Notes: generated by a model not told the origin, from the letters alone. A DNA stretch of 32,000 nt from Pseudodesulfovibrio piezophilus C1TLV30 (GCF_000341895.1 NC_020409.1:1350001-1382000); one strand, 5' to 3'; positions 5,078 to 7,890 are shown, numbered from the stretch's first letter. Numbers and translations are program-made.

Positions 5078-6823
5078 ATGAAAACAACTCAAGCATTCCG
5101 AGAAAAGGACCTGCAAAACATCCAAGTCTTCCGAGGCGGCATTTCAAAGGAAGCCAAGCATGTCCCCATGCACCCCTCTCTCTACCAATTCGACGAAGGC
5201 GGAACACTTTCCTTCAATGAAGGCACGCATGGCGTTCTGGTCATCGGCGGTGTTGGGCGCGGCAAGACGGCGTCCTTTATGCTGCCCATGGCATCCGCGC
5301 TGATTGACGCTGGCCTGCCGGGATTCATCATCGACATCAAAAACAACTTTACAGGTCAGATTCGCAAGCTCGCAAAAAACGCAGGGCGTGAAGATGACAT
5401 CGTCGAGATCGGCACGCATCCGGCCGCCACACCTGTCAATCTCATGGCTGGCCTCGACGTTGATGAGATGCAGCAGATGATAGAGTCGCTTCTCCTCAGC
5501 GGACAGGAACATAGCAAAAACATCGAGTGGCTTCACTCTGGAGTACGCCTACTTGCCGACATCGCACTCCTCTTACGATTCGTATCACAAGTTGATGTAC
5601 GGTTTGCCCCGAGCTTCGTTTTAATGGACCGCTGCGTAAATGATTTCAGGTTCGTCCGTAATATCTTCAATATGTATCTGGATCGTGTCTACGACAACGG
5701 CGATATCAAACAACGAGCATTTACTAACCGCGTCCGAACTTCGCCTTTCCATATCCTCTCAGACAAAATTTATCGGACATCACTAAAATACAATGAACAG
5801 CTTGGTTTTCAGCTTTATGGGCCACGCATGGTGCTTGGATCTATTACTTCGGACGAGTCTCTTTGTAATAATCTCTCCGGGATAAACTGCTCGACAGATC
5901 TGGATTACAGAAAACTCTTAAAAGAAAACAAAATTATCATACTGCGTTTCAAGCACACGCAGGGTCACGCGGCCAAGCTGCTCGCCCGGTTCATCAAGGA
6001 AAAATTTTACGCGGACGTATACCGCACCCTGGATGATTGCGACCAGCCAGAGCAGTGTTTCTTTATGGCAGATGAATTCCAAGACACCATCAACGTTTCG
6101 CCAGATAATACGTTCGACGATCTCTCTTGGTTTTCCAAAGCGCGCGAATTCGGCTGCATCAACATTGTGGCTACCCAAGCACTGTCCAGCCTTTACGGGA
6201 ACAGCCTACAACATGATCAGGTCAACGCCCTGGTCGCGAACTGTTCAACCAAAATCGTCCTCCAAAACGATGACCCTGCTGCCGATAAATTCTTTAGACA
6301 TTTTTGCGGCCTGGAAAAGACGCTGGCCCAACTCGGCCCTAGCGAAGCACTTGTGGCACGTTTTGATTTAGACAGCCGGAAACAGGTGGTCGACACACTC
6401 CACTTTACAAAAATATTTAAAAGGATTCAGGACCGGCTCAACTCCTGCGGGGAAGTAGCCCGAGTGGAAAGCGATACCCCCTCTCTTGGTTCGTTAATGC
6501 AGGAGCTGGATGAAATCCTCTTTTTCGAAACGATTACGACGACCATGGATGGGCGTAAGGATTATGCTGAACTTGTGACAACCTTCAAAAACGTGCTGTG
6601 CTCCCCCAGCACCCTGAAGCTGGAATACAGACCAGAGCGTCACGGGGATGTGATGTATGCCCTCCAATCACTCAATGATAGATTTGGCAAAGGGATCACC
6701 GTCTATGGGGTAGCTGCTATCGGGAATGCAGGGGCTTATCTGGATGTCGGAGACGATGCCGAGCGAGAGGACGTTGCCGATTTTCTGAGGGAACTCTTGG
6801 AGGGTAAATATCATGAAGGCTGA
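5078..6823 (+). CDS. Soluble P-loop NTPase of the type IV coupling protein / TraG-TraD-VirD4 (TraG-D_C-like) class; no TM segments
   Basis: Walker A GGVGRGKT (5246-5269) in the T4CP-like context VLVIGGVGRGKTASFMLPMA...GFIIDIKNNF. Walker B-like CFFMADEFQ. NIVATQALSSL resembles the T4CP Q-motif. ATG 5078 has GGAGG 4 nt upstream; the track start TTG 5021 lies inside the promoter. Confidence 0.8.
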   Translation: MKTTQAFREKDLQNIQVFRGGISKEAKHVPMHPSLYQFDEGGTLSFNEGTHGVLVIGGVGRGKTASFMLPMASALIDAGLPGFIIDIKNNFTGQIRKLAKNAGREDDIVEIGTHPAATPVNLMAGLDVDEMQQMIESLLLSGQEHSKNIEWLHSGVRLLADIALLLRFVSQVDVRFAPSFVLMDRCVNDFRFVRNIFNMYLDRVYDNGDIKQRAFTNRVRTSPFHILSDKIYRTSLKYNEQLGFQLYGPRMVLGSITSDESLCNNLSGINCSTDLDYRKLLKENKIIILRFKHTQGHAAKLLARFIKEKFYADVYRTLDDCDQPEQCFFMADEFQDTINVSPDNTFDDLSWFSKAREFGCINIVATQALSSLYGNSLQHDQVNALVANCSTKIVLQNDDPAADKFFRHFCGLEKTLAQLGPSEALVARFDLDSRKQVVDTLHFTKIFKRIQDRLNSCGEVARVESDTPSLGSLMQELDEILFFETITTTMDGRKDYAELVTTFKNVLCSPSTLKLEYRPERHGDVMYALQSLNDRFGKGITVYGVAAIGNAGAYLDVGDDAEREDVADFLRELLEGKYHEG

Positions 6824-7241
6824 CAAAATGATATACGGTGGACCGAACAAGCTGCTTGGCAAATACATCAAAGCGTATGGCGATGATTTGCTCACACGAC
6901 GAATCTCCGATCCAATCCCAAACGGATGGGCTGAAATAGTGATCGATATGTTCAGCCAAATAAAGCGTTACCACCCGGAGGCAAAAATCGCTTCCATGCG
7001 TATCGCTCCGGCTTCGAAGTACAGCAGCGGCATATTACGCCTTGGCTTTTCTACGCCTGACGAAGGAGACCCCATGCACCCTCCAAAACTTCCCCGGTCC
7101 CTCAAATGGATTACGGAGCAGGCCCGAAAGAAAACCTTCTCGACGTGCGCCGCATGTGGTCATCCAGTCGGTCACCTCACTTCTCTCAGCCTTTGCGCAC
7201 TTTGTGCGTGCAGGATAGGAGTGCGGCACTTTTCCGAATAA
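6813..7241 (+). CDS. Hypothetical 142-aa protein with a C-terminal Cys cluster (CAACGHP...LCALCAC); resembles small phage-type Zn-binding proteins
   Basis: GGAGGG lies 8 nt upstream of the ATG. The start overlaps the ATPase gene by 11 nt (coupled). The ...IASMRI...GILRLGF...CxxCG... layout resembles small phage proteins carrying a 'KEKFGGLRFY ... CxxCG' pattern (from memory, unverified). Confidence 0.65.
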   Translation: MKADKMIYGGPNKLLGKYIKAYGDDLLTRRISDPIPNGWAEIVIDMFSQIKRYHPEAKIASMRIAPASKYSSGILRLGFSTPDEGDPMHPPKLPRSLKWITEQARKKTFSTCAACGHPVGHLTSLSLCALCACRIGVRHFSE

Positions 7242-7293
7242 CACACCATTGCCCTCTTTAAGCAGTACTGCTACATGCTTCGATGAGGCGCAT

Positions 7294-7890
7294 ATGGACA
7301 ACACACAAGACCCATCCGACTTTCACTCATACATTGACAAACCTGGCCGAAAGATCAGTTACTCGCGACTTGCCCCTACGAATAAGACCAAACGCATTGG
7401 TGGCCTCATCACTGAGATACTGTTTGTGGACAAAGCAGGCTGCAAAACTGCCGAACTGCGCCCTGAGCTCGAGGCATGCCTCGACTTTCTGGAGGCCAAT
7501 GATGTCCTGTTTGTCGAATCCATGGCTCACCTCGGACGAAACACACGCGAGCTGGTAGACCTTGTACAGCAGATCACCGACAAAGAAGCAGGTGTGTTTT
7601 TTGTGGATGAGGACCTCGGTCTCGATCCGTCTAGACCGGACTTTGAAACCAACTTTCGGTGGATGCAATCAATGTACGACTTCGAACGGACGCTTGCGCA
7701 GGAACGCCGTAACGAAGGCCTCCTTGAAGCAAAGAAAAAAGGCGTCCGGCTTGGACGCCCCACCAAAATCAACGATGAACAGCGGAAAGAAATCCGCAAC
7801 AGATTCACTCACGGGGAAAAGGCCTTTGCATTAGCCAAAGAATATGGCGTTTCCGAGAGCCTTGTTTATCAGATTGGCAAGTTAAAATAG
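7294..7890 (+). CDS. Serine-recombinase (resolvase/invertase) homologue with a C-terminal HTH; catalytic Ser and other pocket residues substituted, so probably non-catalytic
   Basis: GAGG lies 5 nt upstream of ATG 7294. The resolvase core is recognisable: LRPELEACLDFLEANDVLFVESMAHLGRN...FERTLAQERRNEGLLEAKKKGVRLGRP...HTH. However, YSRLAPT replaces YARVSTxxQ, DKAGC replaces DKASG, and AHLGR replaces DRLGR. Confidence 0.8.
   Translation: MDNTQDPSDFHSYIDKPGRKISYSRLAPTNKTKRIGGLITEILFVDKAGCKTAELRPELEACLDFLEANDVLFVESMAHLGRNTRELVDLVQQITDKEAGVFFVDEDLGLDPSRPDFETNFRWMQSMYDFERTLAQERRNEGLLEAKKKGVRLGRPTKINDEQRKEIRNRFTHGEKAFALAKEYGVSESLVYQIGKLK

Follow-up and report, generated by a model that had tools for sequence, protein, structure and literature searches.

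Conserved trio of an anchor-less coupling-protein-like ATPase, a small zinc-ribbon protein and a resolvase homologue lacking its nucleophile in tRNA-Ala genomic islands of Desulfovibrio-type bacteria

Three consecutive genes of Pseudodesulfovibrio piezophilus C1TLV30, encoding a soluble ATPase related to type IV coupling proteins (T4CPs), a small cysteine-rich protein (ORF2) and a homologue of serine resolvases that has lost its nucleophile, make up a conserved core shared by a family of genomic islands inserted at tRNA-Ala genes in Desulfovibrio-type bacteria. The trio lies within NC_020409.1:1350001-1382000, a stretch of 32,000 nucleotides (nt) that was analyzed as a whole and is called the window below; positions given without a locus name are counted from its first nucleotide. 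Our tentative reading, to which we give a little less than an even chance, is that the trio is the mobilization module of an island that resembles integrative mobilizable elements (IMEs) and is specific for tRNA-Ala, and that this module is built on a coupling protein without a transmembrane (TM) segment. Judged from sequence comparisons, the trio most likely aids transfer of the island rather than fighting phages. Mobilization is favored because of the T4CP-like fold of the ATPase, the relaxase genes beside its nearest relatives, the membership of the trio in the island backbone, and the precedent of TM-less T4CPs.

The trio and the island backbone

The trio occupies 5078-7890 on the plus strand. 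The ATPase gene (5078-6823; 581 amino acids [aa], with an alternative TTG start at 5021) has a GGAGG ribosome-binding site at 5070-5074 and overlaps by 11 nt the ORF2 gene (6813-7241; 142 aa), whose ATG follows a further GGAGG at a distance of 9 nt; this overlap would couple translation of ORF2 to that of the ATPase. A gap of 52 nt separates ORF2 from the resolvase-homologue gene (7294-7890; 198 aa), the frame of which is open from a TTG at 7249 and the ATG of which is preceded by GAGG. This arrangement agrees with the initial annotation of the locus, which had placed a 142-aa protein with a cysteine cluster in an 11-nt overlap with the ATPase gene and a resolvase homologue without its nucleophile about 50 nt further on. 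Compared with the homologous genes of L004 (the closest related island; L and P numbers designate loci and proteins of the comparison set), the ratio of nonsynonymous to synonymous substitution (dN/dS) is 0.14 for the ATPase, 0.20 for ORF2 and 0.15 for the resolvase homologue. These values place all three genes under purifying selection, and all three are thus functional.

Seven loci (the window, L004, L005, L006, L007, L012 and L013) share one and the same gene order, ATPase-ORF2-resolvase homologue, with frames intact at divergences reaching down to ~45-60% identity. ORF2 is present in all seven, including L007, where gene calling missed it although the sequence contains it, and at least five further contigs are suggested to carry the trio by matches that coincide across three protein searches. 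The initial annotation had treated the three genes as one unit and had named lack of conservation as grounds for giving that idea up; conservation is what was found. The upstream region is conserved only in a promoter-like block (5011-5039, plus strand), at which homology among six aligned trio loci begins exactly, and which consists of TTGACA (5011-5016), a 17-nt spacer holding the palindrome TTTTGCAAAA (5019-5028), and TAAGAG (5034-5039). A generic promoter scan omitted this block, the second hexamer of which lacks a T at position 6. The three genes would be transcribed together from this one conserved element.

Downstream of the trio, all seven loci carry a convergent gene for a small zinc-ribbon/TM protein and then an HTH_3 gene, followed in six of the seven by an HTH_17 gene and a tyrosine integrase gene; in L006 neither of the latter two was called in the ~3 kb beyond HTH_3. 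In the window, the HTH_17 protein (9321-9527, plus strand; 68 aa; PF12728, 6e-15) is of the AlpA/excisionase type and is conserved in the trio loci, and the integrase (9531-10655, plus strand; 374 aa; PF00589 at 5.5e-19, and PF22022) shares 72-80% identity with its counterparts in L004, L007 and L013. The integrase gene adjoins a tRNA-Ala(GGC) gene in the window, L007 and L013, so the earlier description of a tRNA-linked island beside an integrase stands. The window copy of this tRNA gene (10756-10831, minus strand; called by ARAGORN and Rfam) is the integration target and the right-hand end of the island. In L004, an island of 15.5 kb, cargo included, is bracketed at both ends by a ~50-nt copy of the tRNA 3' end; in the window only one copy of this attachment site (att) was found. 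The divergence of the trio tracks that of the integrase over 57-80% identity, and the adjacent cargo turns over. Because the trio co-diverges with the integrase while the genes beyond the promoter block vary, the trio is part of the island backbone and not of its cargo. The island has what is expected of an IME in its own integrase and excisionase-type genes at a tRNA target, and mating-pore genes were not found in it. As initially annotated, relaxase, VirB4 and pilus genes are missing, according to Pfam scans that covered the open reading frames (ORFs) of the island and 10 more from the flank at 15-29 kb.

ATPase, zinc-ribbon module and resolvase homologue

The description of the 581-aa protein as a soluble T4CP-like ATPase with Walker A and B motifs and no TM anchor is upheld by motifs, predicted fold and hydropathy. 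Walker A (GGVGRGKT, residues 57-64) and Walker B (D332-E333-x-Q335) are both invariant in the family. No TM segment was found in the ATPase, since its 19-residue Kyte-Doolittle average peaks at 1.65, within the helix that follows the P-loop, against maxima of 2.2 for the TM-bearing relative P0026 and 3.0 for a neighboring 115-aa membrane protein; moreover, Walker A already stands at residue 57, so the N-terminal anchor that characterizes T4CPs is lacking. The profile searches proposed in the initial annotation gave a divided answer. PF10412 (TrwB_AAD_bind) matched above its cut-off (23.3 bits vs 20.5) as the sole Pfam pass for the ATPase, while PF12696 (18.5 bits vs 22) and PF02534 (13.9 vs 20.1) stayed below theirs, as did HerA_C, and scores against the NCBIfam T4CP models were far under the cut-offs. 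An AlphaFold2 model built on 20 relatives (pLDDT 81, pTM 0.75) comprises a nucleotide-binding domain, an all-alpha insert at ~128-270 and a C-terminal α/β domain, with the first 31 residues predicted to be disordered. In Foldseek searches of the PDB with this predicted structure, TrwBΔN70 ranked first (4.7e-11; 420-450 aligned columns, target-normalized TM-score 0.53-0.62), ahead of Cagβ and DotL (~6e-10), and HerA (1e-8) and VirB4 (1e-7) came after the coupling proteins. The family sequence profile, run against the PDB, found DotL at 1.3e-6, with a HerA-like protein at 0.03 as runner-up. Because the fold matches are led by TrwB, Cagβ and DotL and no hydrophobic segment is present, the model indicates an ATPase of coupling-protein fold without the usual N-terminal anchor.

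A subfamily of T4CPs lacking the TM domain is recognized, an example being TraJ of pIP501, which works with a small membrane protein, TraI, encoded nearby (PMC7434980). The window ATPase resembles TraJ, as well as TrwB, VirD4 and DotL, in its FtsK/HerA-type domain with an all-alpha insert, and it resembles the TM-less T4CPs further in having no N-terminal TM segment, a small membrane-protein gene next door and relatives encoded beside relaxases. It differs from T4CPs of solved structure in that sequence identity to them is only 11-14% and PF10412 was passed only just. Other differences from T4CPs are that the C-terminal PxGW zinc-ribbon of the family, here a separate gene, is without Pfam or PDB counterpart; that neither a relaxase nor a type IV secretion system (T4SS) is encoded in cis; and that the partner is a dead resolvase.

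ORF2, which had no match in Pfam, NCBIfam, PHROG or PADLOC, carries the motif IPNGW…CAACG…CALC with C112, C115, C128 and C131 invariant. Its origin is suggested by longer relatives of the ATPase, 628-798 aa in length (P0020-P0025, L001, L002), which continue beyond the end of the 581-aa form into modules of the pattern CxxC…CxxC. In BLAST, ORF2 is colinear with the final ~120 residues of P0025 (E 2e-5, small database), and in hhalign a comparison of 12 ORF2 homologues with six relatives of 714-798 aa, over the second of their C-terminal modules, gave a probability of 87% and E 3.8e-6 over 98 colinear columns. The consensus of 122 aligned representatives of the ATPase family terminates in PxGW…CxxCG…CxxC; among the 91 of these that are at least 600 aa long, 65 have CxxC…CxxC and 55 have PxGW…CxxC…CxxC. 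Since the module is fused in the longer relatives and ORF2 aligns to it, ORF2 is the detached C-terminal zinc-ribbon module of the ATPase family, the clade of the window having undergone gene fission. That ORF2 is a split-off ATPase domain was not part of the initial annotation and is added here. The fission is strong evidence that ORF2 physically works with the ATPase, and an independent fission is found on plasmid pDRET01 of Desulfohalobium retbaense, where genes of 466 aa and 152 aa overlap by 4 nt. The structure model of ORF2 (pLDDT 76) found no significant match in the PDB (best Foldseek E 0.29), and by sequence the best PDB result was a DksA zinc finger at E 0.03; the idea that ORF2 is a T4CP adaptor like DotN, or some other zinc protein already known, was therefore rejected. 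A repeat of the ATPase's own C-terminal domain was likewise rejected (hhalign probability <1%). The model matches four uncharacterized phage proteins end to end (probability 1.0, E 1e-3 to 7e-3, TM-score 0.5-0.6), and its predicted fold is unclassified.

The third protein shares the resolvase fold and a C-terminal HTH_7 domain (PF02796; 1.5e-4, 22 bits) with the small serine recombinases (γδ/Tn3, Sin, Hin/Gin). PF00239 (Resolvase) matches it at 2.5e-19 and 70 bits over profile positions 35-144 only, and the γδ, Tn3 and Sin resolvases match it at E ~1e-12. It belongs to a clade of 17 members with at least 49% identity, the next match being an ordinary resolvase at 36%. In an alignment of 14 clade members with γδ resolvase and this ordinary resolvase, the Ser10 column, which holds the nucleophile of the family, contains Ala in the window copy, P0036 and P0039 and Gly in the other 11 of 14, followed by an invariant Pro. 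The γδ sequence GYARVS corresponds to SYSRLA in the window copy and to SYTRIG in other members, and no conserved Ser or Thr that might act as a substitute was found near the lost position in the 14-member alignment. The homologue further departs from small serine recombinases in a 7-residue deletion that shortens helix A, in an N-terminal extension of ~17 residues and, in the window copy, P0036 and P0039, in the changes D67A and R68H, D67 and R68 being kept in most clade members. Retained in the clade are Y6, R8, R71, E124 and the ERxxEG motif of the E-helix, with R8 and R71 invariant; D36, R45 and D59 are retained in the homologue as well. Because Ser10 is lost throughout the clade and no Ser or Thr stands nearby, the protein is catalytically dead by the mechanism of the family, in that it can form no phosphoserine intermediate and hence carry out no recombination in this way. 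The loss of the serine is ancestral to the whole clade rather than a recent lesion, and the retention of the dimer, E-helix and HTH parts under selection points to a DNA-binding role without recombination. One clade member, P0048 (49% identity), comes from a complete genome of Pseudodesulfovibrio nedwellii (a record of 3.76 Mb) that is not among the ATPase matches; the dead resolvase may occur there without the ATPase, unless the ATPase escaped detection.

For the dead resolvase the most plausible role is that of an accessory or repressor that binds DNA at specific sites, and the window offers candidate sites for it. A perfect 15-bp inverted repeat, CGTTACTGTATGACT/AGTCATACAGTAACG, lies at 8653-8687 after the HTH_3 gene and is kept in L004 and L012. 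In L004 the repeat recurs in full just 5' of the ATPase promoter (L004:9866-9898), the same place being occupied in the window by a degenerate copy (~4943-4975), and a half-site is found at the start codon of the integrase gene (9536-9544). The core GTTACTGTA occurs three times in the window, against 0.03 occurrences expected. The 15-bp repeat might bind a protein, act as an oriT-like site or serve as a terminator; it and its copy 5' of the ATPase promoter, together with the promoter palindrome at 5019-5028, are the candidate sites for the resolvase homologue. Two GGGCACTTTTTTGCCCC-like hairpins 51 nt apart (8879-8898 and 8930-8949) were also noted; they stand in a 730-nt gene-free stretch between HTH_3 and HTH_17 in which L005-L007 hold a gene of 283-301 aa.

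Active resolvases, TnpR among them, also repress transcription at res sites, and motors of the FtsK/HerA superfamily serve the handling of chromosome and plasmid DNA. On these grounds the trio might instead be a maintenance or regulatory module, in which the dead resolvase is a repressor or a factor that steers excision and integration, and the ATPase is a translocase or segregation-type motor acting on the excised circle (dimer handling, partition) without transfer between cells. The dimer-forming, E-helix and HTH parts kept in the clade, the palindrome inside the promoter block, the GTTACTGTA inverted repeats flanking the module, and the lack of a relaxase or T4SS nearby would all suit such a role. 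We nevertheless consider it quite unlikely, given that no replication or partition gene was recognized in the backbone (the genes for 283-aa and 344-aa proteins in relatives are unannotated), that the fold is that of T4CPs in particular, down to the all-alpha insert, and that the relaxase genes beside the nearest relatives would be left unexplained.

The two genes that follow the trio encode the membrane protein mentioned above (7916-8263, minus strand; 115 aa), convergent with the trio and composed of an N-terminal zinc ribbon, for which Pfam matches are weak, and two TM helices, and an HTH_3 regulator (8352-8591, plus strand; 79 aa; PF01381, 4e-15). The membrane protein shares 36-40% identity with its counterparts in L004-L007, and genes of similar size stand at the equivalent place in L012 and L013; it is a candidate membrane partner of the ATPase. 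An exact 24-nt tandem duplication within its gene (8054-8101, minus strand) doubles the eight residues IFLFLVAV of the first TM helix. The HTH_3 protein resembles the control proteins of restriction-modification systems (PADLOC Control_protein, 7e-20) and is 72-77% identical in other trio loci.

Relatives of the ATPase and rival roles

A HMMER search of 1.84 billion cluster representatives found 4242 proteins of the ATPase family at E ≤1e-3, 1546 at ≤1e-10 and 323, each a cluster at 50% identity, at ≤1e-30. Most of the best ~130 representatives have Walker A at residue 45-65, without a TM extension, a length of 620-700 aa and exactly two C-terminal CxxC motifs. An approximate neighbor-joining tree recovers the trio clade as monophyletic in all of 100 bootstraps, and its sister group contains L001, L009 and L014; the closest ATPases outside the trio clade share ~40% identity with it. 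The ATPase genes of L009 and L001 lie directly downstream of a NikA/MobC gene and a PF03432 relaxase gene, and in L010 a NikA gene and a homologous relaxase gene lie directly downstream of the ATPase gene. A T4CP gene beside a relaxase gene is the usual arrangement (PMC12857230). The relaxase gene of L001 (L001:7827-9416), next to a 646-aa ATPase relative, contains an in-frame stop at 8286-8288, and that of L009 was split by the gene caller though a continuous 516-aa frame exists (7647-9194). A RepB primase is encoded near the ATPase of L016, and a VirB4 fragment near that of L014.

Three trio loci themselves carry a gene that speaks for mobilization. The backbone of L005-L007 has two extra genes, for proteins of 344-355 aa and 283-301 aa, the first of which (L005:13074-14105, L006:13038-14069, L007:12888-13952; absent from the window) stands between the genes of the dead resolvase and the membrane protein. 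The 344-aa protein combines an unrelated N-terminus with the tyrosine-recombinase catalytic set TGCRxxE…K…FRQQ…LGH…GHY, and thereby shares the set RxxE…K…R…H…Y with relaxases derived from tyrosine recombinases (TcpM/MOBM, MpsA of SGI1, MobK). Its gene lies in a mobilization-type backbone, downstream of a 14-bp inverted repeat, TATTCGCGGCAGGC/GCCTACCGCGAATA, which is conserved in L005 and L007. No model of a named relaxase matches it by sequence. Neither the 344-aa nor the 283-aa protein matched NCBIfam or the PDB, and Pfam gave only a sub-threshold Phage_integrase match for the 344-aa protein. To judge by its residues, it could be an atypical relaxase of the TcpM/MpsA type.

Some mobilizable elements and replicons carry their own T4CP (PMC7434980; PMC5704250). 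With IMEs of this kind (streptococcal elements encoding VirD4 and a MobC relaxase) and with CloDF13-type MOBC1 plasmids, the trio islands share a tyrosine integrase and excisionase at a tRNA att site, a T4CP-like gene, the lack of mating-pore genes and a variable cargo. The known elements always have their own relaxase beside the T4CP, whereas the trio islands do not; the T4CP of the trio islands is anchor-less and split, and their mobilization is hypothetical.

If the trio is a mobilization module, the integrase and the excisionase-like protein would excise the island, and the dead resolvase, by means of the dimer and HTH parts that it has kept, would bind at a particular site in the island, the GTTACTGTA inverted repeats being candidates. 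Once bound, it might act as a DNA-recognition accessory, as a repressor or as both, in the way relaxosome accessory factors do. Nicking would be left to the relaxase of a helper element or, in L005-L007, possibly to the adjacent 344-aa tyrosine-recombinase-like protein. The ATPase with its zinc-ribbon module would serve as a hexameric motor or receptor that hands the island DNA-protein complex to the type IV secretion channel of the helper, docking at the membrane perhaps through the neighboring small zinc-ribbon/TM protein, as with the TM-less T4CP TraJ and its partner TraI on pIP501.

Several findings weigh against this reading. The TM domain is normally essential for the contact of VirD4-type T4CPs with the T4SS (PMC7434980). 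No relaxase is found in the window or in four of the seven trio loci, the sequenced flanks of the six other trio loci contain none when tested for homologues of the L009 and L010 relaxases only, no oriT was identified, and T4SS genes are lacking in the window. The ATPase family is nearly absent from 72,556 sequenced plasmids. Moreover, in 9 of 14 non-trio loci the gene adjacent or very near to the ATPase gene encodes a phosphoesterase rather than a relaxase, namely a Metallophos protein of ~230 aa in L002, L008, L010, L014, L018 (plasmid pDRET01), L020 and L021, and a NIF protein in L011 and L022; L020 has HAD (HAD_SAK_2) and PHP enzymes in addition. Several relatives adjoin Type I restriction-modification, Septu-like, CRISPR-Cas or AddAB-like genes, and some reach up to 48 bits against the HerA-like defense component Mad8. 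Finally, the roles given above to the dead resolvase and the membrane protein are ones that we purely infer. Outside the trio clade, the pairing of ATPase and phosphoesterase may constitute an undescribed two-gene module.

Much of the same evidence can be read as a sign of conflict or defense. On that account the trio would be a defense module placed in the island backbone, its T4CP/HerA-like motor and zinc ribbon sensing or translocating the DNA of invading phages or conjugative plasmids, its dead resolvase providing sequence-specific DNA binding or regulation, and the small TM protein acting as effector, a place taken by the phosphoesterases in relatives. An NTPase, a small zinc protein and a DNA-binding protein beside a control-protein HTH and a small TM protein have the composition of such a module; the trio is without a relaxase, the cargo next to it in L005 and L006 consists of defense genes, and the distant relatives stand with Metallophos, NIF, HAD or PHP enzymes in the defense-like neighborhoods just described. 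In PADLOC, which was applied to every protein of the island and to five members of the family plus four proteins encoded next to them, Mad8, an essential HerA-like component of the MADS defense system, was the only match for the whole ATPase family. The window ATPase belongs to the same superfamily as the HerA/DptH-like defense ATPases (Mad8; DptH of DptFGH phosphorothioate-sensing restriction; HerA-Sir2/DUF4297) and is, like them, soluble and island-located.

Yet the Mad8 match of the window protein is weak (24.3 bits, E 4.8e-6), the other seven mad genes are absent among its neighbors, and, unlike in the HerA/DptH systems, the window has no methylase, specificity subunit, kinase, DptG, Sir2 or nuclease partner genes. 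The trio holds no enzymatic effector, and its co-divergence with the integrase, while defense cargo turns over, is the behavior of a backbone. The predicted structure is closer to T4CPs than to HerA, the nearest outgroups are relaxase-linked, and mobile elements and defense islands overlap, so that neighborhood alone does not discriminate. PADLOC gave no system match beyond the weak Mad8 score and generic ones, on which grounds named defense systems were rejected and the initial impression that this combination is not a named system holds. The initial annotation had favored an anti-phage or interference cassette and had offered the mobilization module of an IME as a mundane alternative; with the backbone status, the T4CP matches and the relaxase-linked outgroups, the evidence now fits that alternative better. 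Defense is kept as an unlikely, though by no means negligible, explanation because the window trio lacks a relaxase and the distant family stands beside phosphoesterases in defense-like neighborhoods.

A related alternative, for which the chances appear small, is that the family has no coupling role in transfer at all. Usually paired with a phosphoesterase, and in the trio clade with the dead resolvase and the small membrane protein, it would form the heart of a hitherto undescribed conflict system, its motor descended from coupling proteins but now directed at incoming DNA. Capture of the relaxosomes or DNA ends of rival conjugative elements or phages would be one conceivable mode of action, with the dead resolvase as a reader of self or target sites. 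Two other origins of the trio were rejected. A plasmid origin is not suggested by PLSDB, which contains only one close relative (pDRET01) besides distant canonical T4CPs; for an origin in phages or satellites, IMG/VR contigs and phage genomes contained no relatives, and PHROGs was uninformative for the ATPase and ORF2.

Cargo, decay and wider meaning

Beyond the promoter block the islands differ. L005 carries a Type ISP restriction-modification gene and a PLD-helicase; L006 TerB, a BrxC/D-like ATPase and a DEAD helicase; L007 an RTX toxin with a type I secretion system; L004 an S8 peptidase and HlyC; L012 sensor kinases; and the window HlyC, IS3 and a frameshifted remnant. The remnant (4360-4963, plus strand) derives from a 368-aa gene that is intact 5' of the ATPase gene in L004; tblastn aligns it at 39% identity over 193 aa, split across frames, and with it the variable or decaying portion of the island begins. 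The IS3-family transposase (1431-2620, minus strand) consists of two ORFs, orfA and orfB. Together, the IS3 insertion and the frameshifted remnant suggest that the cargo side of the window copy is decaying.

These lesions raise the question of whether the trio itself is a remnant of a former conjugative or mobilizable element without current function, as the single att copy in the window, the catalytically dead recombinase and the missing relaxase might also imply. This explanation is highly improbable. The dN/dS of 0.14-0.20 for all three genes, the intact frames in the same order across seven loci that diverge down to ~45-60% identity, the conserved promoter block and translational coupling, and the loss of the serine at the base of the clade all speak against it, and the data on selection and synteny largely refute it.

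On the cargo side, a c-di-GMP-I riboswitch (4048-4126, minus strand; Rfam RF01051, 55.7 bits vs a gathering score of 35) lies 5' of a gene for an HlyC-type RTX-toxin acyltransferase, the HlyC domain of which falls within 3401-3850; this is an unusual gene set for the riboswitch. The ORF called here (3401-4213, 270 aa) spans the riboswitch, and the true start is probably further downstream. Two small unannotated ORFs (3041-3280 and 2650-3051) follow downstream on the same strand as the HlyC-type gene. To the right of the tRNA gene stand housekeeping genes, including those for MarC, Obg, ProB, a LysR regulator and a major facilitator superfamily (MFS) transporter.

Single ingredients of the trio islands have precedents in TM-less T4CPs, in IMEs with their own T4CP and in resolvases that act as repressors. 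What appears undescribed is the family of anchor-less T4CP-like ATPases with a PxGW zinc ribbon, its fission into two genes, and the fixed partnership with a dead resolvase in a tRNA-Ala island backbone; public records give trio-type proteins generic names only. The work thus defines a sizeable unnamed family of soluble T4CP-like ATPases with a C-terminal PxGW…CxxCG…CxxC module, and it offers an example of domain reuse in a serine recombinase that is maintained under selection after loss of its nucleophile. Were the defense reading to prove true, the trio would represent a new class of defense system derived from conjugation machinery. If the trio is indeed a mobilization module, there would be mobilizable islands equipped with an anchor-less coupling protein of their own and with a DNA-binding accessory derived from a recombinase, but with no relaxase, and the range of ways in which islands with defense or toxin cargo hijack conjugation in sulfate-reducing bacteria would be wider.

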